This document shows, one piece after another, positions 5,032-34,873 of a stretch of DNA of 36,367 bases. Positions within the stretch are counted from its first letter, which is position 1; every line of letters begins with the position of its first letter. The notes beneath the pieces were generated by a model. The model saw nothing but the letters and a program-made list of their open reading frames with translations, made no database searches and was not told the origin of the DNA. Source of the stretch: Thermoflexus hugenholtzii JAD2 (lineage in GTDB: Bacteria; Chloroflexota; Anaerolineae; J036; Brachytrichaceae); contig CAMDWA010000028.1 of assembly GCA_945877855.1 (NCBI GenBank), positions 1 through 36,367 on the forward strand, in the 5' to 3' direction. The translations under genes and the position numbers were made by a program.

Positions 5032-6416
5032 TGATGACCAACTTGACCTTTACCCCCCTCAGCAAACTGCGCCGCATGTTACGAGATAAAAAAATCTCGT
5101 CGGTTGAGTTGACCCAGCATTTTTTAGACCGTTTGGCCCAACACGGCCCCAAATATAACGCGCTGGCCGAGCTGACACCCGATTTGGCATTGGCGCAAGC
5201 CAAACAGGCCGATCAATTGCTCAAAAAAGGCGAACACAACTCACCCTTGCTCGGCATTCCCTATGGGGCCAAAGATTTGCTGGCAACCAAAGGCATCCCC
5301 ACCCGTTGGGGATCACCCGCCCACCAAGACCAAGTGCCAGAGGTCGATGCCACAACGGTGCTGCGCCTGCGCGAGGCAGGTGCACCATTATTGGGCAAAT
5401 TGGCAATGGTCGAAATTGCGGGCGGCGGCGGGTATTCATTACCCAGCGCCTCGTTGCATGGGCCGGGGCTTAATCCTTGGAATGTTAATACGTGGTCAGG
5501 TGGCTCATCATCGGGGTCGGGCAGCGCGGTGGCGGCGGGGTTGGTGCCGTTTGCGCTTGGCTCTGAAACATGGGGCAGCATCGTCACACCGTCAACCTAT
5601 TGCGGCATTACTGGCTTGCGCCCAACCTATGGCTTGGTCAGCCGCTTTGGGGCAATGGAATTGGCGTGGACGATGGACAAAGTGGGGCCGATGGCGCACA
5701 GCGCCGAAGATTGTGGCCTCATTCTGCAAGCCATTGCTGGCCCTGATAGGCTCGACCTGACCGCAACCGGCAAATTTAAATTTCGCCCACGCAAAAAACA
5801 ACATCATAAGTTGCGGTTAGGCGTGTTGCCTGCCGATTTTAGTGGCGAGCCTGAGCTTGAGCAGGTTTTTCAGGCCGCGCTTGAGGTGTTGCATAAGGCC
5901 GGTATGAAGATCAAACCAGTGGAGTTGCCCAAGCACGACTATGCTGGCATCGCCAATACGCTGCTGTATGCCGAAATGGCGGGGGCGCATGAGGCGTTTA
6001 TCAAAAGCGACAAACTTGATTTGCTGGTGAATGGCCCGCAAAAAGAGGGCTTGCGCAACGCCTTAACCTACACTGCCGCCCAAACCATTCAAGCCCAACA
6101 ACAAAAATTACAGGCCACCCACGACCTGTTGCAGCTTTTTGACGAATTTGATGCGCTGGTGTCGCCGTCACTCATGATTGAGGCCCCATCGCTTGACACC
6201 GACTTGCGCACGGCGTTTAAACGGCGCGGGGGCTATAGCGTGTTGGGGGCCTTGTGTGGCGTGCCGGCCTTGGCTTTGCCGATGGGCTTTGGCAAATCGG
6301 GTTTGCCGCTTGGCCTTAATATTACCGGCAATTTGTTTGACGAAAACACCATTTTGCACATCGGCATGGTTTATCAGCGCGAAACCGATTGGCATGAACG
6401 GCGACCACCAATTTAA
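5031..6416 (+). CDS. Amidase-signature family amidase (GatA-like)
   Basis: Amidase signature GGSSSGSGSAVAAG...GSETWGSI with the catalytic Lys in YGAKDLL. 461 aa, translationally coupled to the upstream CMD gene. Confidence 0.8.
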   Translation: MMTNLTFTPLSKLRRMLRDKKISSVELTQHFLDRLAQHGPKYNALAELTPDLALAQAKQADQLLKKGEHNSPLLGIPYGAKDLLATKGIPTRWGSPAHQDQVPEVDATTVLRLREAGAPLLGKLAMVEIAGGGGYSLPSASLHGPGLNPWNVNTWSGGSSSGSGSAVAAGLVPFALGSETWGSIVTPSTYCGITGLRPTYGLVSRFGAMELAWTMDKVGPMAHSAEDCGLILQAIAGPDRLDLTATGKFKFRPRKKQHHKLRLGVLPADFSGEPELEQVFQAALEVLHKAGMKIKPVELPKHDYAGIANTLLYAEMAGAHEAFIKSDKLDLLVNGPQKEGLRNALTYTAAQTIQAQQQKLQATHDLLQLFDEFDALVSPSLMIEAPSLDTDLRTAFKRRGGYSVLGALCGVPALALPMGFGKSGLPLGLNITGNLFDENTILHIGMVYQRETDWHERRPPI

Positions 6417-11211: not shown

Positions 11212-12774
11212 TTACGCCGTCTTCAATATTTCATCAGCGGCTTTTACACCCGACAAATACGCCCCATGCACCGTGCCAAAATATTGGCGGCTAGCCGCCT
11301 CACCCGCAAAATACAGCACATCGTCTAGCGATTTTGCCAAATGGTCGCGCATTTCGGGAACCGCGCCAACTGGGTTAAATGAATAGGAGCCACCCGCAAA
11401 AGGGTCTGAACTCCAACGGGTAATTTGATAATCGATCGGGTCAGGGGTGTTGCGCCCGAAGATAGTGCGCAGGGTTTGCATGGCGCTGGCGACGATCTTC
11501 TCATCGCTCAAAGCCTCAATCGATTGCCCGATATTGGCGGCGTTAAACCCCAGCAAAATGGGCAAACCAGTCGGGCGGGCAAAACTCACCCACTCCACCC
11601 ATTCGCCAGCGTTGGGGGCCACATATTCCATCCAATCGTATTTGGCTTGCCAAAATACCTTGGGGAAGCGCAAATAGCACTTGTTCAACACGCCCATTTT
11701 TAGCGCCTCGATGGCCTTTTGTTTTTGGGCAGGCAAGGCGGGCTTAAACATCACGGCACTGCGTTTCAGCACCCCCAGCGGCAAAGTGACAAGCACCTTC
11801 TCGGCCACATAAGTCGCGCTGTCAGTCGTAACACTTACACGATCTTTTGCCGTTTTCCATTCAATCTGACGCACTGGGCTGTTGGTTTTAATATCAAGCC
11901 CTTGCGCCAAATACCCTGCAATAGCCCCATAACCAGCCAAAAAGAGCGCGTCATCGCCCTTAAACGCCGCATCATCGTCATACCAATGCGCCGACAATTC
12001 GCCAATGCTGCCAGCGTATTCTTGCTCAAACTTGCCATTGAGAATAAAACTAACCAGCTGCTGCTCTTCGAGTGACAGTTTGGCCCAATTGAGCGCTTTT
12101 TCGATGACGGTCTGAATCGACTGGTCGTCATCACGTTTTTGGGCCGCCTTCAGAGCTTGGGTAATGGCTTTATCTAGCCGTTCAATTTGCGCCTCTTGCG
12201 CATCGCTCAAAACTTGACCTTGTGACCCATACCCAATTGTGCTCTCATAATATGTGGTCGCCATTTTTGCACCCACCGTCTGAGCCAAGGTCATAATCGG
12301 GTTGCCATCCACTCCGTGAATCCACGACGCGCCCAAATCCATTGGCGCATCGGGCCACTTGTTGCTCGTCCACAACCGCCCGCCAATGCGATCACGTGCC
12401 TCTAACACCAGCGGCTTGATGCCACGCTGGGACAATCTTTGCGCAGCCGCCAACCCCGCCATGCCTGCACCAATAACAATGACGCGCTGAAAGGCAGCAG
12501 TGACAGCCTGAGCCACAACAATTGGCAAGCAAATTACAGCGGAAGTAGTTTTGTCGCGCTGAGAGTCGGCGGTAACAGCCTGAGCCGCAACCGCAGTCGG
12601 CACGGGGGGCAGTGTGGGATTAGATGGTGGCGACAAAGCAGGTGGTGGCACAGGTGTCGCGTTGACCGGGGCTGAGATATCAGCAGTAGGGGCATAGGAA
12701 GGTAAAGTGCTTGTGGAGGCGCTCAAACCTACCACTGTCGCCCCCAGCCATTGCAAAAAATGTCGTCTGTGCAT
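11212..12774 (-). CDS. Tat-exported flavin-containing amine oxidase (MAO/polyamine oxidase family)
   Basis: Twin-arginine motif RRHFLQW at the N-terminus, a Pro/Ala-rich linker, then the FAD-binding fold VIVIGAGMAGLAAA...LEARDRIGGR and the C-terminal amine-oxidase motif YFAGEAAS...GAYLSG. Confidence 0.75.
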   Translation of the reverse strand: MHRRHFLQWLGATVVGLSASTSTLPSYAPTADISAPVNATPVPPPALSPPSNPTLPPVPTAVAAQAVTADSQRDKTTSAVICLPIVVAQAVTAAFQRVIVIGAGMAGLAAAQRLSQRGIKPLVLEARDRIGGRLWTSNKWPDAPMDLGASWIHGVDGNPIMTLAQTVGAKMATTYYESTIGYGSQGQVLSDAQEAQIERLDKAITQALKAAQKRDDDQSIQTVIEKALNWAKLSLEEQQLVSFILNGKFEQEYAGSIGELSAHWYDDDAAFKGDDALFLAGYGAIAGYLAQGLDIKTNSPVRQIEWKTAKDRVSVTTDSATYVAEKVLVTLPLGVLKRSAVMFKPALPAQKQKAIEALKMGVLNKCYLRFPKVFWQAKYDWMEYVAPNAGEWVEWVSFARPTGLPILLGFNAANIGQSIEALSDEKIVASAMQTLRTIFGRNTPDPIDYQITRWSSDPFAGGSYSFNPVGAVPEMRDHLAKSLDDVLYFAGEAASRQYFGTVHGAYLSGVKAADEILKTA

Positions 12775-13784
12775 TCTAATCCAAACTCTAACGTCGAATG
12801 ACGATAAAGCTTGATTATATTCAGATCAAGTTGTAATAAGATTGTTGCCTCATTTTTACCTACATACTCTAACACCGACAGCACATAGCAAATGCTTTCA
12901 GGCCGTGCATTCTTCTTGTTGTTGTCCCGCACAACAATCCAAGGCCTAAACGAGGTATAGACCTTGCTAAACATCAATTCTTTACATTTGGTATACGAAT
13001 CCCAAAATGCTTGGCTTTTGGCATCCATTAGGCTAATTTTCCATTGTTTCAATGGGTTATCAGCCCGTGAATCAAAACGTCATTTTTGCTCCTCTTTCGA
13101 GATCAAAAACCAAAATTTGATCAGCGTGACACTGTCTTCATACAACCTATGCTTATATTCGGTCACTTGGCGAATAAATTGCTCATATTGTTCGGGTGCG
13201 CAAAAGCCATTGACCGACTCGACGACAGCGCGGTTATACCAACTGCGGTCAAAAAACACAATCTCACCGCAATTTGGCAATTGGCACGTGTAACGCTGAA
13301 AATACCATTGCCCCACTTCTTCTTCGGTCGGCTTGGGCCAAGCCACCACTCGCAAGGCACGCGGGTTCATATGCTCGGTAAAGCGGCGAATGGCCCCGCC
13401 CTTACCGGCGGCATCGCGGCCCTCGAACAAAATCGCCACACGCCGTTTTTTCTCTTGCACCCAGCGTTGCAGTTTCACCAATTCGATCTGTAGCTTTTGC
13501 AATTCGTTCTCATAATTGAGCAACTCGACAATTTTTTGCGGGTTAATCTCCTTCGACTGCAGCAAACTAAACAGATCACGCGGCGACTGCACGCTGATCA
13601 AATCTTTGTAGGTTAGAAATGGCGCATCGGGGTTACTGGGCGGCGTCATGGGCAAGGCTGGCGGCACTTTTGGGGGCAACTTGGCGGCTGCGGGTTTGGG
13701 CGCAGCTTTTTTGCGGCGCTTTGGCTTGTCGCTGTTCGGGTTGTTGTTTGGGTCGCTGGGGGATGGAAGTGAAGCTTGAGACAT
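12729..13784 (-). pseudogene. ppk2: Polyphosphate kinase 2 (PPK2) interrupted by a single in-frame TGA
   Basis: Upstream ORF (to 13080) has the PPK2 Walker A FEGRDAAGKGG and ...FWFLISKEEQK. A TGA at 13080-13082 is followed in the same frame by RFDSRADNPLKQWKISLMDAKSQAFWDSYTK...PWIVVRDNNKKNARPE, the conserved PPK2 C-terminus. Start taken at MSQASL (13784). The ORF is otherwise intact. Confidence 0.65.
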
Positions 13785-13869
13785 AAGAATGTGTGGGATA
13801 AAACAAAATAAAAACACCTCGTGCAAAAATCACACGCCGTAGACAGCATATTCTGCCCTTGTTCATCAC

Positions 13870-14840
13870 TCACCCCCCTGATGGGTAGCACGGCACTGGC
13901 TTGTTGGATAGTGCACAACAACCTCACAAGACCAGTCCGCGTTGACGCAAATGCAGCACTCACCCTGCTATCAATTGAGGCGGTGGGCGCGTTTGTCTGG
14001 CTTGCTTGCGCGGCTCGTGCGGGGGCAGATGCCCAGCAACTGACAGTTGCTGGGCATCTACTCACCCTTAATTGATGGCAAACGTAACACTCACCACGCC
14101 ATCAATTGAGGCAGTGATGGGGTTAGTCTGGCGTGCTTGCGCGGCTCATGCGGGTGCAGATGCACCGCACCTCGCAGGTGCGGCGCATCTACTCACCCCA
14201 CGTTGGTGGCAAATGCAACGCTCACCCCGCCCTCAATTGAGGCAGTGATGGGGTTAGTCTGGCTTGCTTGCGCGGCTCGTCCGGATGCAGATGCACCGCA
14301 CCTCGCAGGTGCGGCGCATCTACTCACCCTTAAATTGATGGCAATGCAACGCTTACCCCGCCCTCAATTGAGGCAGTGGGCGCGGTCATTTGGCTTGCTT
14401 GCGCGGCTCGTGCGGGGGCAGATGCCCAGCAACTGACAGTTGCTGGGCATCTACTCACCCTTAATTGATGGCAAACGTAACACTAACCCCGCCATCAATT
14501 GAGGCAGTGACGGGGTTAGTCTAGCTTGCTTGCGCGGCTCATGCGGGTGCAGATGCGCCGCACCTGCGAGGTGCGGCGCATCTACTCACCCTTAAATTGG
14601 TGGCAAATGTAACACTCACCCTGCCCTCAATTGAGGCGGTGACGGGGTTAGTCTGGCGTGCTTGCGCGGCTCGTGCAGGTGCAGATGCCCAGCAACTGGC
14701 AGTTGCTGGGCATCTACTCACCCTTAAATTGATGGCAAATGCAACGCTCACCCCACCCTCAATTAAGGCGGTGGGCGCGGTCGTTTGGCTGGCTTGCGCG
14801 GATCGTGCGGGTGCAGATGCGCCGCACCTGCGAAGGGCGA
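13870..14840. repeat. Tandem array of about 7.4 units of ~131 bp (130-133 bp), each with two conserved hairpins and two alternating variants
   Basis: Unit starts (motif caattgagg) at 13971, 14104, 14234, 14365, 14496, 14628 and 14760. Variant A hairpin is gatgcccagcaactg-aca-cagttgctgggcatc; variant B hairpin is gatgcgccgcacct-gcg-aggtgcggcgcatc. A second hairpin, aattgatggc...gcc(a/c)tcaatt, spans the unit junctions. Confidence 0.85.
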
Positions 14841-14888
14841 CGACGACATCTCTTTGCCAATATGACACCCCTGCCCCCCACGGCCGGG

Positions 14889-14925
14889 CCGCGCTCCGCG
14901 CGGGCAGAGGGGTGCTCCCCTCTGC
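14889..14925 (-). other. Two adjacent GC-rich hairpins 45-80 nt downstream of the NACHT-FGE gene stop (DGR-type post-VR hairpins)
   Basis: ccgcgc-tcc-gcgcgg (14889-14903) and gcagagggg-tgct-cccctctgc (14904-14925; 8-9 bp stem with a 4-nt loop). Confidence 0.5.
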
Positions 14926-14968
14926 ACTCCCCCTTGATACCAGATAACCCAGAGCACCAAAGACCCGA

Positions 14969-17839
14969 TTAACCGGAGGCCCGAGCGGAGAATCGGGGCG
15001 CACTACTCACCAAACGAAAACCGTCGTTGCTGTCACGGATGTCTACATGGGAGTCGTCACGGACCGCCGCCCGCGCATCCGTATCATAGTTATACCACGA
15101 CCCGCCGCGCACGACCCGCTTTTTTATATTTTCTATACTTGGGTCTTCACGTTCCAAATTCGCCTGATATGGATACGCTAAGTAAGCACTGCTCGTCCAT
15201 TCCCACACATTACCGCATAAATCGCTAATGCCTTCAGGCGTTTCGCCCTCGGCAAAGAGACCAATCGGGGTGGTGCGACGAATATGACGCTCGAACGTAT
15301 TGCATTGACTGGCTTCAAATTTTTCGCCATACGCATAGGCACGCGCCCGCCCGCGCCGGTCAGGTTGACCCCGCGCTGCGGCCTCCCACTGCGCTTCGCT
15401 CGGCAAAACATAGCGGCTGCCAATTTGGGCACTCAGCCACAAACCATAGGCCCGCGCCTCATGCCAACATACCCCCACCACCGGCTGGCTGGGCTGGTTA
15501 AAGGCGCTGTCTTCCCAAAACCGCGGCTGCAGCGGCACCTCACCCATCGGAAAGGTTTTAGCCAACCACGCTTCAAAGGCCTCATCACTCCAATTGCGAA
15601 GCGTATGCCAAGCTCGCGCTTGGGTTGAGGTGCAGCGTTGTTGCGCCAATAAATGGTCGATATAGTCCTCCTCCCAGCTTTTTATAGCTTGTCTGCTGCT
15701 TCGCCAGCCCTCGCGCTGGCCTGCCACCGCACCTTCGGGGGTGCGAAAATAGCTTGCGGCTGGCGTATCCCACCAACGGGCATCGCTATAACCACCCGCA
15801 CGCATAAAACAAGCAAATTCGGCATTGGTGACCGGAAACTTACCCATGCGAAATGCATCCAACTTGACGCGGTGCACATGCTTAGCATTATCATACGACT
15901 GGTCTTGGTCGCCCAGCACATAGTCACCGGCCTCAATGGCGATCATGGGCGGCAACAGATATTCATGCCCCAGCTTGCCCATGCGCCGCTCAAAACGCGG
16001 GTCGCCCAGCCCCCCCAACGCCTCACCGGCGGCAATCCGCGCCCGTAGGTCGGCGTTGCGGTCTTGGCTGCGGGCAATCAAGCCTTGCTGCAACTCGTGC
16101 AACAAGGTGGTCGCCAGCTTGGGCTTGACCTGCGCCGCCACCTCGGCCGCCAACGGCAAGTTGAGCGGCATCAGGCTGGCAATCAGCGCATTCGGCTGCT
16201 CACTCAGTTGGGCCGCCAATTTCAGCGTTTCGGCCCAGCCGCTGCGATCGAGCGGCGGCAATGGCTCATAATCTTGGGCGGTTGCCAGCCACTGCGCCAA
16301 ACTCGGCTGCACCGCCTCGGCCTGCCACGCAATCGCCGCCAGCGGCGCATCAAATTGGCGGGCCGCACGGCGGGCCGCAAAAAATTCTTGCAGCAATTGA
16401 TGATAAAACCAAAACTCCTCGCGTTGGCGATCTTCATCTAGCACCGTCAGGGCCACGCCTGCCGTCAGCACCTCGCGCGCCCGTGGGTGTTGCAACACGT
16501 CGCAGGCGCGGGCTTCGTCCAACGTCACCCGCCCACCCGCGCCAGCCAGCCCTTGGCATTGCATGGCATAGGCCAATTCGCTTAGCTTGGGCATGAGCAA
16601 CCCGCGTTCGGGCAAACGCAGGTTGGTTTGGGTATCAACACGGGTGACATCTTCACGGTCACGCAGGTCGAATAGCGCTTCGTCCAGCAGCAGTGCATTC
16701 TTGCCCTCCACCTCGCGGCGGGCGGCGCGCCGCACCAGCTCGGCAAATAACTCGGCGCGGCTAGCCGGAATTTGCCCGGCCCGCTCATTCACCAAATCGC
16801 ACAATATTTTGGCGAAATAAGGCGTGGCATATAACGCAAGTTGCTCAGGCTGGTCCTTGATCTTGCCCCATATCGCAGCGGCGTGTTTGGGCGTATGTTG
16901 CTGCAAAAACGCCTCAAGCTGAACCGCATTGAGCACCTTCAGCGTGATCTGGCGCACATCCACATCGTCTTTCACGCTTAGGGTTTGGCTATAGTCGAGG
17001 CTGCGGCAGGTAAACACGGCGCGATTGCCCGATGGCAGGTCATCGCGCAAAAAATCGCGCCAGCGTTCCACCTGTTTGCCATATACCGCCCCGTTTGGGT
17101 GTGGCATCTCGTTCAGTGCATCCAACAACAGCAACACACACCCTTGCGCCAAAAAATAATCGAGCGGCGGCAGGGTGACATGAAAGCGCTTCAGCGTTTG
17201 CTGCCATTGTTGCGCCAGCCACTCGGCTGGGTCGGGCGCGTCGGGCGTGTATTTGTTGAGTGTAACAAACAATGTCACACTCAGCTGGGGTTGGTCTGCC
17301 GCCAAATACTCGGTCGCGCTTTGCCATTGCAGGCGGCGCAGCAAGGTGGTTTTGCCGCCGCCCGGCACCCCCAGCAGCACCAGCGACGGGTCGGTGATTT
17401 CCGCATCCGCCAGAACCTCGCTCAGGTCTTGGTAATCGTGGTCGCGCTCGGCAAAGCTCAGGCTGGTGTCGGTTTTTTGGCGGTCGAGCAGCCGCATCCG
17501 CACAAAACGGGTGTCAATTTGGCGCTTTTGGGCCAAATCTTTCGCCACTGCGCGATGATATGCCGTCAATGCGGCTTGGGTGGCGGCGGGGTCGGGCGCG
17601 GGTTGGGCATCGGCAAAGCTGATATTCGGGCGGGCCTCACGCACGGCTTGCAGTAATTTGGCATAATCGCCACGCGATTCGCAATGCTTAATCAAGTTCA
17701 TGGCGAACTTGGGTTGGGTATTGCGCTCAAAATCCTCGTCTCCAATCCCCAACTCAAAACACAACAGTTCGAGTTCGTCTGTTTTGAAATGCGCCTTCAA
17801 TGCCGCATAAAGTTGTTGCTGGGTTGGGGTATGGGGCAT
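14969..17839 (-). CDS. STAND NTPase: N-terminal death-like/effector-associated helical domain, NACHT P-loop NTPase, HEAT-like repeats and a C-terminal FGE-sulfatase (SUMF1-like, C-type-lectin fold) domain
   Basis: Walker A LLGVPGGGKTTLL, a NACHT-type Walker B LLLLDALNEM, and a HEAT-like AAGEALGGLGDPR. FGE motifs: HRVKLDAFRMGKFPVTNAEF, GNVWEWTSS, RVVRGGSW...GFRLV. The N-terminus carries LxxALKAHFxxxELELLCFELGIGDEDF. Confidence 0.8.
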   Translation of the reverse strand: MPHTPTQQQLYAALKAHFKTDELELLCFELGIGDEDFERNTQPKFAMNLIKHCESRGDYAKLLQAVREARPNISFADAQPAPDPAATQAALTAYHRAVAKDLAQKRQIDTRFVRMRLLDRQKTDTSLSFAERDHDYQDLSEVLADAEITDPSLVLLGVPGGGKTTLLRRLQWQSATEYLAADQPQLSVTLFVTLNKYTPDAPDPAEWLAQQWQQTLKRFHVTLPPLDYFLAQGCVLLLLDALNEMPHPNGAVYGKQVERWRDFLRDDLPSGNRAVFTCRSLDYSQTLSVKDDVDVRQITLKVLNAVQLEAFLQQHTPKHAAAIWGKIKDQPEQLALYATPYFAKILCDLVNERAGQIPASRAELFAELVRRAARREVEGKNALLLDEALFDLRDREDVTRVDTQTNLRLPERGLLMPKLSELAYAMQCQGLAGAGGRVTLDEARACDVLQHPRAREVLTAGVALTVLDEDRQREEFWFYHQLLQEFFAARRAARQFDAPLAAIAWQAEAVQPSLAQWLATAQDYEPLPPLDRSGWAETLKLAAQLSEQPNALIASLMPLNLPLAAEVAAQVKPKLATTLLHELQQGLIARSQDRNADLRARIAAGEALGGLGDPRFERRMGKLGHEYLLPPMIAIEAGDYVLGDQDQSYDNAKHVHRVKLDAFRMGKFPVTNAEFACFMRAGGYSDARWWDTPAASYFRTPEGAVAGQREGWRSSRQAIKSWEEDYIDHLLAQQRCTSTQARAWHTLRNWSDEAFEAWLAKTFPMGEVPLQPRFWEDSAFNQPSQPVVGVCWHEARAYGLWLSAQIGSRYVLPSEAQWEAAARGQPDRRGRARAYAYGEKFEASQCNTFERHIRRTTPIGLFAEGETPEGISDLCGNVWEWTSSAYLAYPYQANLEREDPSIENIKKRVVRGGSWYNYDTDARAAVRDDSHVDIRDSNDGFRLVSSAPRFSARASG
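14995..15112 (-). other. Putative DGR variable region (VR) at the C-terminus of the FGE domain
   Basis: RGGSW-YNYDTDARAAVRDDSHVDIRDSNDGFRLV. The scaffold positions match the canonical FGE-type template pattern RGGSWNNN..AR.A.R......GFR, and the variable codons are mostly NNC/NNT (tat aac tat gat...gac tcc cat gta gac atc cgt gac agc aac gac), as expected for AAC/AAT-derived mutagenesis. Confidence 0.5.
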
Positions 17840-17847
17840 GGCGTGAG

Positions 17848-17872
17848 ATTATAGCAAGATGAGCAATGTCAA
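17848..17872 (-). promoter_or_regulatory. Consensus -35 TTGACA and -10 TATAAT hexamers (13-nt spacer) 8 nt upstream of the NACHT gene ATG
   Basis: Minus strand reads ttgaca-ttgctcatcttgc-tataat-ctcacgcc-ATG. The hexamers are perfect but the spacer is short, which would make the gene near-leaderless. Confidence 0.3.
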
Positions 17873-26946: not shown

Positions 26947-26972
26947 ATTTACCGCATTTTCTCAATCATTGG

Positions 26973-27075
26973 GAGCATCCCCAAAAGACGTAACGCCGAA
27001 CGCACTGTCACTTTGTGTTTGAAGAGGGCAAAGCCTTCTTCAAACACAAAGTGACAGTGCGTTCGGCGAAAATAG
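26973..27075. repeat. ~100-bp palindromic MITE-like element (family 2, copy 1, inverted orientation)
   Basis: cgccgaacgcactgtcactttgtgtttgaagagggcaaagccttcttcaaacacaaagtgacagtgcgttcggcg plus the tail ggggatgc...cgtcttttgg. Near-identical to the copies at 32410 and 34717. Confidence 0.8.
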
Positions 27076-27166
27076 ATTTTGATTTCCCCTGTTTATTGAA
27101 TAGATATAAAAATACAATATAATATTACAGCAAAACTGAAAATCTATAATATTTCGGGGGTGTCTC

Positions 27167-29230
27167 ATGACTTCTGTTCGATTAGGCCAAATTTTTTTAG
27201 CAATGATTTTGTTGATCTCGGCGGCAAATTTACAACCTGCGCAGGCCTTGCCACCATCGCCAAATTTAACAACAACGCAAGCGATTGCACCGCAATTAGC
27301 CACTCGTGCCAACAATGCACCCAGCGCCCCAGCCGCCCCCAACGACCGGCTCATTGGCCTGGATTTAAACGAAATTAGCATTCAACCTGCCTCAAACGGC
27401 TTTGAATGGGTGGAACTGAAAAATAATTATTGGCTAGAGGTAGACATCAGCGGCTATAAACTGAGCAACGAAGAAGGCATGTGGTTCGTCTTCCCAACCC
27501 TGCCGCCAGTGCCGCCCGAAACCTTCGTGCTGGTCATCTTCGATGGCATGGGCAGCGCCGCCAACGACACCGACTCCAGCGATAAACGCATTACCTTGCA
27601 CAGCCCGCCGGATATGGTGAATGTGCTAAATGATCAAGCTGGACAACTCAGCCTATATGGGCGTGGCACACGCGCTTTTTTGCCGCTGATTGCCAACAAC
27701 CTGAGCGAAAACACCGCTGACGAACCCTCATTGCCTTGGCGTGAAGCCGGTGTGCCGCCCATTGCCATGCGCGATTTTGTAGCATGGGGAACTGCGCCCA
27801 CCGATGCCCCCGGCCCCAAAGCCGAAGCCGCAATTGCGGCAGGCTTGTGGCAAAAAGATATGTTTGTGCCACTCGACTTTGAAGGCACAACCGTTGCCAT
27901 GCAAGGCAAAACCATCGGACGTTATCCCGGCAGGTATTTGTATAACTTCGTCGAGACGGATTGGCTCATTTATTCGTCGGGCGATGTGACCCAAGGCAGC
28001 GACAATAAAAACCTCGCACCCGATATCTTATCGCCCGTCGCCAATACCACCCTAATCAATATTCAACGCCCAGAGATTATTTGGTCGCCGCTCGACTTGG
28101 TTGAAAGTTATCAAGTGCAGATTGACGACGAAGCTACCTTTGCCACACCGCTTATTTCAGGCACAGTCGCAGGCACGTTTTACTCAGCCTTGCCCACCAA
28201 CAATTTAAATTATGGGCGTTATTATGCGCGGGTCAAAGCCTTCTTTAATAATAAAACCCAGTCAGCCTTCTCGCCATCGGTGGTGTTTACCTTGGCCAAA
28301 ACAATCACGCTTGCCAGCAAATCGACCGCCGACACCTTGCCCAACTTCAGTGCTAGCCCAAATGCAGACTTACCGGTAAGTATTACTGCACCCGCCAAAG
28401 ACACGAAATCGCTCGATTTACATAATTTATGGACCAACCAAGGCGCATGGGATACCGCCCATGCCAAACCAGAAAACGCCAAAGACGTGCTACTTTACAA
28501 TAATTTCAGCACCATCCAAGCCATGGCAAAATATTATGGCGGCAACCTCAGCCAAGATCGTATTGCCTATGAATTTTGTAAAAATTATGGCGAACGTGAA
28601 TTAGATCTGTGTCCGATCAATCTCACTCGTCGCATCTTGGCTTGGAACAAAGGGGAAAATTTTCGATTGCTGTTGCAGTGGGCATTGAATGGCACTGAAG
28701 TACAGTCATATACAATAACCGAAAGGGATGATTACACTGACGAAATTGTAAATGCACTTGCGAATCGGATCCCTGTAATTATTTTTGCCAACTATCAGAG
28801 ATCAATGTCTGCGGGCATCACGACAAATATGCTAAGCAGAGATAAATTGATTGGCATTACGCCGCTCTTTAGACAACCCCATATGTTTGTTCATCCTCGG
28901 TTTCTGGTTCAGGTTAAAGCCCAAGTGACTATTTTTATCCCCAAAAACGCACCGGTCGCCAATGCACCAGCCCGCCGCGATGAAGATTTGAATAACAACG
29001 GGGTTTCTGACCTGAATGACGACACCGATGGCGACGGCGTATCAGACTTTGACGAGCGCGTGCGTTTTCAATCGCCCTTTGGCGGCTTAGATCTGGCCAA
29101 TGCTGATAGTGACGGCGACCTTGTGCCAGACAAAACCGAGATTTTTGCCTATACCAAAGACCACCGTTATGCCGATATTGACCGCGACGGCAAGCGCAAC
29201 GAAATTGACCCCGACAGCGACCGATTTTGA
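27167..29230 (+). CDS. Large secreted protein: signal peptide, lamin-tail-like domain, FN3-like domain and thrombospondin type-3 (Ca-binding DxDxDG) repeats; ends at an in-frame TGA
   Basis: Signal MTSVRLGQIFLAMILLISAANLQPAQA; LTD-like INEISIQPASNGFEWVELKNN...DISGYKL; TSP3-like DLNDDTDGDGVSDFDE, DSDGDLVPDKTE, DIDRDGKRNEIDPDSD. An AT-rich, rare-codon segment lies at about 28540-28920. Confidence 0.65.
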   Translation: MTSVRLGQIFLAMILLISAANLQPAQALPPSPNLTTTQAIAPQLATRANNAPSAPAAPNDRLIGLDLNEISIQPASNGFEWVELKNNYWLEVDISGYKLSNEEGMWFVFPTLPPVPPETFVLVIFDGMGSAANDTDSSDKRITLHSPPDMVNVLNDQAGQLSLYGRGTRAFLPLIANNLSENTADEPSLPWREAGVPPIAMRDFVAWGTAPTDAPGPKAEAAIAAGLWQKDMFVPLDFEGTTVAMQGKTIGRYPGRYLYNFVETDWLIYSSGDVTQGSDNKNLAPDILSPVANTTLINIQRPEIIWSPLDLVESYQVQIDDEATFATPLISGTVAGTFYSALPTNNLNYGRYYARVKAFFNNKTQSAFSPSVVFTLAKTITLASKSTADTLPNFSASPNADLPVSITAPAKDTKSLDLHNLWTNQGAWDTAHAKPENAKDVLLYNNFSTIQAMAKYYGGNLSQDRIAYEFCKNYGERELDLCPINLTRRILAWNKGENFRLLLQWALNGTEVQSYTITERDDYTDEIVNALANRIPVIIFANYQRSMSAGITTNMLSRDKLIGITPLFRQPHMFVHPRFLVQVKAQVTIFIPKNAPVANAPARRDEDLNNNGVSDLNDDTDGDGVSDFDERVRFQSPFGGLDLANADSDGDLVPDKTEIFAYTKDHRYADIDRDGKRNEIDPDSDRF

Positions 29231-30046
29231 GATGACCGCTCACGCGATGGCTGTGAAGATGCCAATCGTAATGGGTTTTATGATTCACAAGCCACCGGCA
29301 ATAACAAAGAAACCAACAACGCCGACCCAAGCCAAGAAAAAGACTGCAAAAACCCCGAAATTAGCATCACCAGCCCCGCCGCTGGGGCCAAGATCGATGC
29401 TTGTTTGGCCGATTTACAAGGCGAAATTGTCAGCGTGCCCGACATGAAAATTCTCACCGCCGAAATCATCGCCGCAAAACAACAATCACACGTGCAACTT
29501 TCTTTTACAAAATCGTCAGATCGTTACACGTTCAAGCAAAAATTGCCCTTATTCAAAGGCAAAAACACCGTGCTGATTAACGCTACCAATGCCGACGGCG
29601 GCTCAGATCAAGAATTGCTCGTGCTGTCGTGTGATCGCGCCGCCGATCTACATTTGCAACTGACATGGGGGCAAATTGGGCGTGATGTCGATTTGCATTT
29701 GTTGCGCGGCAGCGCCGCCCTTAATTCAAAAGATGATTGTTATTACGCCAATGCCAACCCAGATTGGGGAGATGCTGGTAACCCCGACGATAACCCCAAG
29801 TTAGATGTGGATTGCATCAGCAATTGCACCGTCGAAAACATTTACTTTACTGCCCCCAAACCGGGCCTCTATACCGTCATCGCCTATTATTACAATGATA
29901 AAAGCCAAGGCCCAACTGTGCCACAAGTGACGATTAATGCACGTGGCAAAACCTATAAATTGGGGCCACGCACCTTAGCCAAAACAGGCGACCAATGGAC
30001 GGTAGCGACCATCGAAGTGACAGCCACTGATATCATTGTCAGGTGA
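29231..30046 (+). other. In-frame, stop-free continuation of the preceding ORF after the TGA (further TSP3-like repeat, Ig-like segment, PPC-like DVDLHL domain)
   Basis: Same reading frame as 27167..29230, with no stop between 29231 and 30046. The translation DDRSRDGCEDANRNGFYD...LHLQLTWGQIGRDVDLHLL...YTVIAYYYNDKSQG continues the domain architecture. Confidence 0.55.
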
Positions 30047-32352: not shown

Positions 32353-32409
32353 TTTTAGCGTTTAGATTTACAATTAAAATAATTCAAAAATAGCGAAGAT
32401 TAAAACAAA

Positions 32410-32510
32410 TTTTCGCCGAACTCACTATCATTTTGTGTTTGGAGAGGGCTTTGCCCTCTCCAAACACAAAATGATAGTGAGTTCGGCATTACGTCTTTTG
32501 GGGACGCCCC
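32410..32510. repeat. ~100-bp palindromic MITE-like element (family 2, copy 2)
   Basis: ttttcgccgaactcactatcattttgtgtttggagagggctttgccctctccaaacacaaaatgatagtgagttcggcattacgtcttttggggacgcccc. Confidence 0.8.
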
Positions 32511-32548
32511 AATGATTAAAAGATACAAAAATTCAATCGTCAATCATA

Positions 32549-34707: not shown

Positions 34708-34716
34708 TGAATTTAT

Positions 34717-34816
34717 TTTCGCCGAACTCACTATCACTTCGTGTTTGGAGAAGGCAAAGCCTTCTCCAAACACAAAGTGATAGTGAGTTCGGCATTACGT
34801 CTTTTATGGTCACCCC
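34717..34816. repeat. ~100-bp palindromic MITE-like element (family 2, copy 3)
   Basis: ttttcgccgaactcactatcacttcgtgtttggagaaggcaaagccttctccaaacacaaagtgatagtgagttcggcattacgtcttttatggtcacccc. Confidence 0.8.
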
Positions 34817-34836
34817 AAATTATTGGAAAAATACTA

Positions 34837-34873
34837 AAAAGCCTTGATTTCTGATCAAAATCAAGGCTTTTTT
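34837..34873. terminator. Bidirectional rho-independent terminator (stem aaaagccttgatt / aatcaaggctttt, with T/A tracts on both sides)
   Basis: Hairpin followed by TTTTTT on the + strand (hut operon side) and by TTTTT on the minus strand immediately 3' of the tRNA. Confidence 0.7.

Follow-up and report, generated by a model that had tools for sequence, protein, structure and literature searches.

How is a single in-frame UGA in the middle of a conserved and otherwise open gene to be read? We examined this for a gene at positions 27167-30046 of contig CAMDWA010000028.1, whose 36,367 nucleotides are called the window here. When the frame is translated it gives 687 codons, a TGA at 29228-29230, 271 stop-free codons and a final TGA at 30044-30046, the whole gene comprising 959 codons with the internal TGA at codon 688 (local sequence GAC CGA TTT TGA GAT GAC CGC). 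An earlier note on this DNA had raised programmed or tolerated UGA read-through as worth testing. Our analysis leads to a plainer answer: the TGA at codon 688 is very probably a genuine and very recent nonsense mutation, fixed in one uncultured freshwater Anaerolineae strain, and the case is one of ordinary gene loss.

The interrupted frame is one gene

The list of open reading frames (ORFs) for the window contains 27167-29230 (687 amino acids, aa) and 29405-30046, and the second of these is the tail of the interrupted frame called from a TTG start, just as the earlier note had described it. By our own arithmetic, (61/64)^271, the chance of 271 stop-free codons is about 2e-6. A protein search using the fused frame (both halves) as query found uninterrupted full-length homologues: P0001 (959 aa, 98% identity), P0002 (954 aa, 83%, labelled by NCBI as a metagenome-assembled genome hypothetical protein from an Anaerolineae bacterium), P0003 (954 aa, 81%) and P0004 (962 aa, 65%). 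Because the frame is homologous to these full-length orthologues of 954-962 aa over 99-100% of its length, the continuation is a real portion of the gene, and the description of the locus as a gene of about 960 codons split at codon 688 stands. We also considered an independent restart of the tail and rejected it. The first in-frame starts are TTG at 29405 and ATG at 29444, with no signal peptide and no obvious Shine-Dalgarno sequence, and an exported product made from either is unlikely.

Relatives carry tryptophan at codon 688

P0001 to P0004 share the motif ...DPDSD(R/Q)(F/Y)W DDRSRDGCEDANRNG..., with Trp at the position where the window has TGA, and the orthologues of the intact relatives continue DSD(R/Q)(F/Y)W DDRSRDGCED across the stop position. 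In DNA, codon 688 is TGG at eight loci (L001, L002, L005, L006, L010, L011, L012 and L013) that span 65-99% identity to the window gene, and TGA in the window and at L003, L004, L014, L015 and L016, all of which are the window strain. Two of the TGG loci belong to GTDB species representatives, namely L011 (90%; CAZLOF01, 'uncultured Thermoflexus sp.') and L010 (83%; JAHBAL02, 'Anaerolineae bacterium AQU-02'). A freshwater aquaculture-system metagenome is the source of one close intact relative, and the sole sample accession located by a literature look-up, SRR20005812, is from a freshwater recirculating aquaculture study. Since all intact relatives, from 99% down to 65% identical, have TGG at codon 688, the stop evidently arose by one G>A transition at 29230 that turned TGG (Trp) into TGA. 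The sense codon that the earlier note had predicted for orthologues at this position is thus found, and it is Trp; these orthologues run past codon 688, and the 271 downstream codons are conserved as protein.

Among the intact alleles L006 (protein P0030) is nearest to the window, with 12 differences over the 2880 positions of the gene (~99.6% DNA identity). We polarised the changes private to the window strain by parsimony against L006, L001 and L011, and obtained three in the gene: two synonymous changes, 27457 C>T and 28186 G>A, and W688* itself. All three are GC>AT transitions and none lies downstream of the stop. W688* is therefore very recent. The intact look of the tail reflects the youth of the allele, which has had no time to decay, and is uninformative about translation. 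Local hypermutation or deamination was rejected as the source of the stop, the spectrum of window versus L001 being balanced (G>A 17, A>G 16, C>T 21, T>C 23).

The portion lost carries the strongest constraint

The protein belongs to an uncharacterised family. We ran Pfam over 20 homologues and the window protein. Among the homologues LTD was matched in 20, Peptidase_C39_2 in 13, FGE-sulfatase in 6, TSP3_bac in 3, PPC in 2 and DUF2135 in 1. The window protein itself matched only LTD, PPC and Glucodextran_B, all below the cut-offs: LTD scored 29.3 bits against a Pfam cut-off of 34.3 (best value among the homologues 1.2e-41), PPC was weak at 19.2 bits, and PF13529 (C39-like) was absent from its matches. 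Structural domains were taken from the AlphaFold model of P0001 (mean pLDDT 67.7; Table 1). Foldseek comparison with the PDB returned generic Ig-like sandwiches only, from which no function follows. The domain labels of the earlier note fare unevenly against these results. LTD is matched in all 20 homologues but falls below the cut-off here, PPC and TSP3_bac are weak (the latter in 3 of 20), FN3 is present only as a beta-sandwich in the model, and a C39-like peptidase domain, which follows the FN3-like domain and precedes the Asp-rich repeats, had been overlooked.

The catalytic motifs of this C39-like domain, YC[VE]RAS and PGHxRVIDGY, are kept in 16 distant homologues. The window clade (P0001-P0004) reads YNNFST/YSQFSV and lacks the His motif; both catalytic residues, Cys and His, are gone, and its domain is by these residues a pseudo-protease that cannot act as a cysteine peptidase. 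This domain is still under purifying selection, with a ratio of nonsynonymous to synonymous substitution rates (dN/dS) of ~0.15.

In the intact relatives dN/dS is 0.02-0.055 for codons 689-959, compared with ~0.15 upstream, and codons 689-959 are, on this measure, the most constrained part of the gene. In the window strain translation would terminate at codon 688 and yield a secreted fragment of 687 residues that lacks both C-terminal beta-sandwich domains, the most strongly conserved part of the protein. Because this most constrained part is removed, the function of the truncated product is most likely lost or badly impaired. Position 688 itself lies within a variable three-residue loop that is an indel in distant homologues.

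Possible read-through of the stop

UGA is the leakiest of the stop codons, and tRNA-Trp is its near-cognate reader. Tolerated or functional read-through of codon 688 would give a short form of 687 aa and a wild-type form of 959 aa, a knock-down rather than a knock-out. Several features would suit it: near-cognate decoding of UGA inserts precisely the ancestral residue, Trp; the loop position means that other inserted residues would probably be tolerated; and beyond the stop the frame shows no damage. Misreading of UGA by tRNA-Trp is also known in both E. coli and B. subtilis (PMC5289835). We nevertheless consider read-through unlikely, since the stop is conserved in no relative, L006 included: the eight orthologous loci that were compared have TGG, and TGA is confined to the window strain. 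The intactness of the frame is explained by recency, with no private change downstream and two elsewhere besides the stop. The extension is indeed conserved as protein, but trivially so, because it is part of the ancestral ORF. The sequence downstream of the stop is the same in the window and in the TGG alleles, and the same gene terminates normally at a TGA.

The context of the stop does not favour leakiness either. The base at +4 is G, and the natural terminator is TGA-T. In bacteria inefficient UGA termination has been linked to +4C and efficient termination to +4U, and misreading of UGA by tRNA-Trp has been linked to +4A in E. coli (PMC5289835). No stimulatory RNA structure was detected in the 119 nt from the stop (z = -0.86), 43 of 200 shuffled sequences folding as well. 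A search of the whole window found no tRNA except Arg-TCT and no other Rfam match, so a suppressor tRNA or RNA element within the window was rejected. Frameshift rescue at U-UUU-UGA was likewise rejected: a +1 slip enters a frame ending at TGA 29445 and not the conserved frame. Together with the frameshifts and TAG codons in other strains described below, which tRNA-Trp could not rescue, these results go against the read-through proposed in the earlier note.

What is probably left to a nonsense mutation at a former Trp codon is background misreading of UGA by tRNA-Trp, which would restore the wild-type residue. Such misreading could give traces of wild-type protein, and nothing points to programming or selection of it. 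A more elaborate version would make W688* a 'soft' knock-down, in which tRNA-Trp misreading leaves a few per cent of exact wild-type protein, the recurrent disruption of the gene reflects fluctuating selection (for example by phage or grazers), and Trp>UGA serves as a reversible, leaky off-switch; we offer this as speculation and think it distinctly unlikely.

Other broken alleles of the same gene

Two other lineages have evidently inactivated the same gene independently and by different lesions. L005 (ENA ERZ19025716) has TGG at 688 and a 1-bp deletion at window position 29358, 43 codons downstream. L012 (JGI 3300032314) and L013 (ENA ERZ28594022) share an identical allele, ~92% identical to the window, with a 1-bp deletion at codon 216 and two stops, W422 TGG>TAG and W505 TGG>TAG. 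At the L005 and L012/L013 loci gene calling gives full length for the flanking genes (ABC transporter, DUF2177, urocanase, cupin, amidohydrolase). On the L012 branch the nonsynonymous:synonymous counts are 59:47 in the N-terminal and 8:18 in the C-terminal part, compared with 4:14 and 0:7 on the intact L001 branch, and constraint on the L012 branch is thus relaxed. As the W422 and W505 stops of L012/L013 add to W688*, a G>A change from Trp to stop is the usual nonsense route in this GC>AT-biased lineage. The TAG stops and frameshifts in these lineages are beyond rescue by tRNA-Trp. A DNA pattern scan and a protein scan of JGI metagenome contigs yielded no further alleles.

In L005, the stretch equivalent to window 29305-29387 holds 9 single-nucleotide polymorphisms (SNPs) plus the 1-bp deletion in 82 bases, and these match the allele type of P0024/P0027/P0028. 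This cluster points to recombination among strains that live together, or to an assembly that became chimeric at a strain bubble.

Because two other lineages inactivated the gene independently, part of the population would seem able to do without it or to be under selection to lose it. The second of these possibilities can be taken further, to a truncation that was itself positively selected, for example as an escape from phages or predators that exploit the protein on the cell surface. Three independently disrupted lineages among about a dozen strain-level alleles, with intact neighbours, would fit such selection, as would the placing of the first lesions, two of the three being no more than 43 codons apart and shortly ahead of the C-terminal domains. 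The L012/L013 allele, however, was hit early, at codon 216, and decays along its whole length in the manner typical of plain loss; moreover, the L005 lesion may be an artefact and few alleles have been sampled. Adaptive truncation is accordingly quite improbable as an account of W688*.

The allele in separate records

Another way to account for the TGA would be a sequencing or assembly error in which the true codon is TGG. The stop is a single-base difference from the nearest relative, and all of the data are metagenome assemblies. However, the same TGA is present in four records: GCA_947492325.1, on a 5.4-kb contig; ERZ27280291, on a contig of 53 kb; ERZ27280234, on a contig of 3.9 kb that differs from the window by one SNP elsewhere; and the Logan assembly of ERR3719138. 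Contig ends differ among these records, which come from at least two assemblers (the ENA contigs are MEGAHIT-style k141), and the exact 687-aa product and the gene callers' 200-aa tail ORF are recorded in NCBI, ENA and Logan. Because the differing contig ends, the assemblers and the independent SNP indicate separate consensus calls, an artefact at 29230 is, judged from the assembly records, very unlikely.

The ppk2 gene

The earlier note had set beside this gene a second intact-looking gene of the window, ppk2, with a single internal TGA of its own. That TGA is present, but the gene is not intact. Its orthologues, of 335-342 aa, have Arg (CGG) at the TGA site and end in ...HRSTLNLD, and in the window the natural stop has been lost as well, by TGA>CGA at 12740. 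Polarised with L009 as outgroup and with L007 as the sister lineage, ppk2 shows 60 derived changes in the window lineage versus 5 in L007. Of the 60, 42 are nonsynonymous and 18 synonymous; those at otherwise invariant positions include R>C (three times), P>S, P>L (three times), G>S and H>Y, and the coding-strand spectrum is rich in C>T (26 C>T, 11 G>A). The adjoining FAD-oxidoreductase gene is symmetric, with 38 versus 36 changes. A ppk2 pseudogene occurs in another strain too, where the 5' end is also deleted. By all these signs in its sequence the window ppk2 is an old, neutrally decaying pseudogene, and it therefore lends no support to read-through.

A second TGG>TGA event in ppk2, as the W in the public proteins P0033 and P0035 might suggest, was rejected: the L008 DNA has TGA, and the ancestral codon is CGG. 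The Trp at TGA in P0033/P0035 (L008 1071-1934) is an artefact of gene calling with translation table 4, and these proteins match only the table-4 translation.

Genetic code

Code and stop usage were counted over the 24 credible genes of the window. At ~51% G+C these end in TAA (18), TGA (4) and TAG (2), a strong preference for TAA. Three of the four TGA terminators lie within ATGA start/stop overlaps (22541, 23968 and 33409), in agreement with the earlier note, which had also taken the code to be standard. The genes contain 173 TGG codons, and TGA occurs once at a Trp site. With the four TGA terminators, and with the TGA end of this gene conserved in five sequences, the genetic code is to all appearances standard. 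The probability that TGA here means Trp (code 4), Gly (code 25) or selenocysteine is close to nil: the W at TGA in some public proteins of this population (P0033, P0035) is a product of table-4 gene calling, the TGA of ppk2 goes back to an Arg codon (CGG), and selenocysteine is rejected because the orthologues carry Trp rather than Cys or Sec, with no hairpin and no Rfam match after the stop.

Neighbouring elements

The coordinates of the features discussed are given in Table 1. Near ppk2, a segment of ~4.2 kb at 13685-17850 has a G+C of 0.56-0.62 versus ~0.50 and is absent from strain L008; it contains, at 14969-17839 on the minus strand, a gene for a 956-aa EAD7-NACHT-FGE-sulfatase protein. 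In L009, uvrB directly adjoins ppk2. The segment has the look of an inserted gene island for NLR-like defence or signalling.

A palindromic intergenic element of 105-125 nt (REP/MITE-like) occurs in three copies, at 26972-27094, 32388-32531 and 34710-34840. The copy at 32395-32535 forms a hairpin of 35 perfect base pairs (-80 kcal/mol, z = -15.3). In L001 the urocanase and cupin genes are separated, at 5332-6076, by a small ORF and a PIN-domain gene (86 and 138 aa), a toxin-antitoxin-like pair; the counterpart in the window, 32370-32542, holds the palindromic repeat element only.

Table 1. Coordinates of the interrupted gene, its domains and nearby features (window positions; residues of the fused frame or, where stated, of the AlphaFold model of P0001).
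Feature	Window position	Strand	Residues	Remarks
Codons 1-687, predicted to be still translated	27167..29227	+	1-687	signal peptide ~1-27, LTD, FN3-like, C39-like pseudo-protease, first half of Asp-rich repeats
Premature stop TGA (W688*)	29228..29230	+	688	TGG to TGA by G>A at 29230; +4 base G
Codons 689-959, predicted to be now untranslated	29231..30043	+	689-959	rest of Asp-rich repeats, Ig-like sandwich, PPC/DUF2135-like sandwich
Natural terminator, TGA then T	30044..30046	+		TGA in all five compared sequences
LTD	27362..27643	+	66-159	PF00932, E = 1.2e-6, below gathering score; pLDDT 80-93
C39-like alpha/beta domain	28364..28966	+	~400-600	PF13529 in 13/20 homologues
Asp-rich DxDxDG (bacterial TSP3-like) repeats	28973..29344	+	~603-726	hold the stop; invariant D/G columns; low pLDDT
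N-terminal signal helix, AlphaFold P0001			4-20	
LTD sandwich, AlphaFold P0001			~63-270	confident beta-sandwich
FN3-like sandwich, AlphaFold P0001			285-377	
Alpha/beta domain (C39-like), AlphaFold P0001			~400-600	
Asp-rich region, AlphaFold P0001			~600-726	poorly ordered; includes codon 688
Ig-like sandwich, AlphaFold P0001			730-822	
C-terminal sandwich (PPC/DUF2135-like), AlphaFold P0001			828-959	
Palindromic REP/MITE-like intergenic element	26972..27094	not assigned		just upstream of gene; separate from lesion
ppk2 pseudogene	12729..13826	-		TGA at 13082-13080, natural stop lost, many radical substitutions

Discussion

We read W688* as a young strain-level nonsense mutation, and several points weigh against this reading or narrow it. 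The allele being so recent, its intact downstream codons do not tell 'no time to decay' from 'still translated by read-through'. The four TGA records may stem from related samples of a single study, and thus speak for the reality of the allele and not for its spread. As UGA is leaky and tRNA-Trp near-cognate to it, some full-length wild-type protein may be made. Finally, the L005 deletion sits in a cluster of SNPs, where a strain bubble could have misled the assembly.

For annotation, the locus is correctly described as a single gene that a premature stop interrupts, hence a pseudogene or truncated allele, and neither as two genes nor as a case of recoding. More generally, a young nonsense allele is the most economical explanation of an internal stop in an 'intact' metagenomic gene, and the test is whether relatives keep the stop. 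Public protein sets also contain table-4 translations of standard-code contigs, and the Trp that these show at TGA can be mistaken for a sign of recoding. That this secreted protein has been lost repeatedly in different strains is, as population genomics, a modest observation.

Comparison with known systems

In its architecture the protein resembles, over 70-100% of its length, the Chloroflexota LTD/C39-like secreted proteins, which are uncharacterised and some of which carry FGE-sulfatase or VWA domains. It shares with them a signal peptide, LTD, FN3-like and C39-like domains, Asp-rich repeats of calcium-binding type and a C-terminal beta-sandwich. Unlike that family, the window clade (at least 65% identity) has lost both catalytic residues, Cys and His, from its C39-like domain. 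The ppk2 gene is similarly recognisable as a PPK2 polyphosphate kinase, with homology to solved PPK2 structures (E = 5e-75) and a retained Walker A motif; unlike functional PPK2, the window copy has an internal TGA, a lost stop and ~42 derived nonsynonymous changes at otherwise invariant sites.

With natural genes that are read through by tRNA-Trp or in a programmed manner, the interrupted gene has in common a UGA where Trp would give a functional full-length protein and a long, conserved in-frame extension. In programmed read-through, however, relatives share the stop, and a leaky context or a stimulatory element usually accompanies it; none of these is present here.

The closest likeness is to strain-specific nonsense alleles of bacterial surface or secreted proteins, which show the same single-step change from sense to stop in one lineage of an otherwise intact gene, and likewise independent hits elsewhere and relaxed constraint in the older alleles. 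Compared with ordinary nonsense alleles, the only particularity of W688* is that the lost codon is Trp, so that background misreading of UGA would regenerate the wild-type protein. It is a strain-level loss-of-function allele of an already known, ordinary kind.

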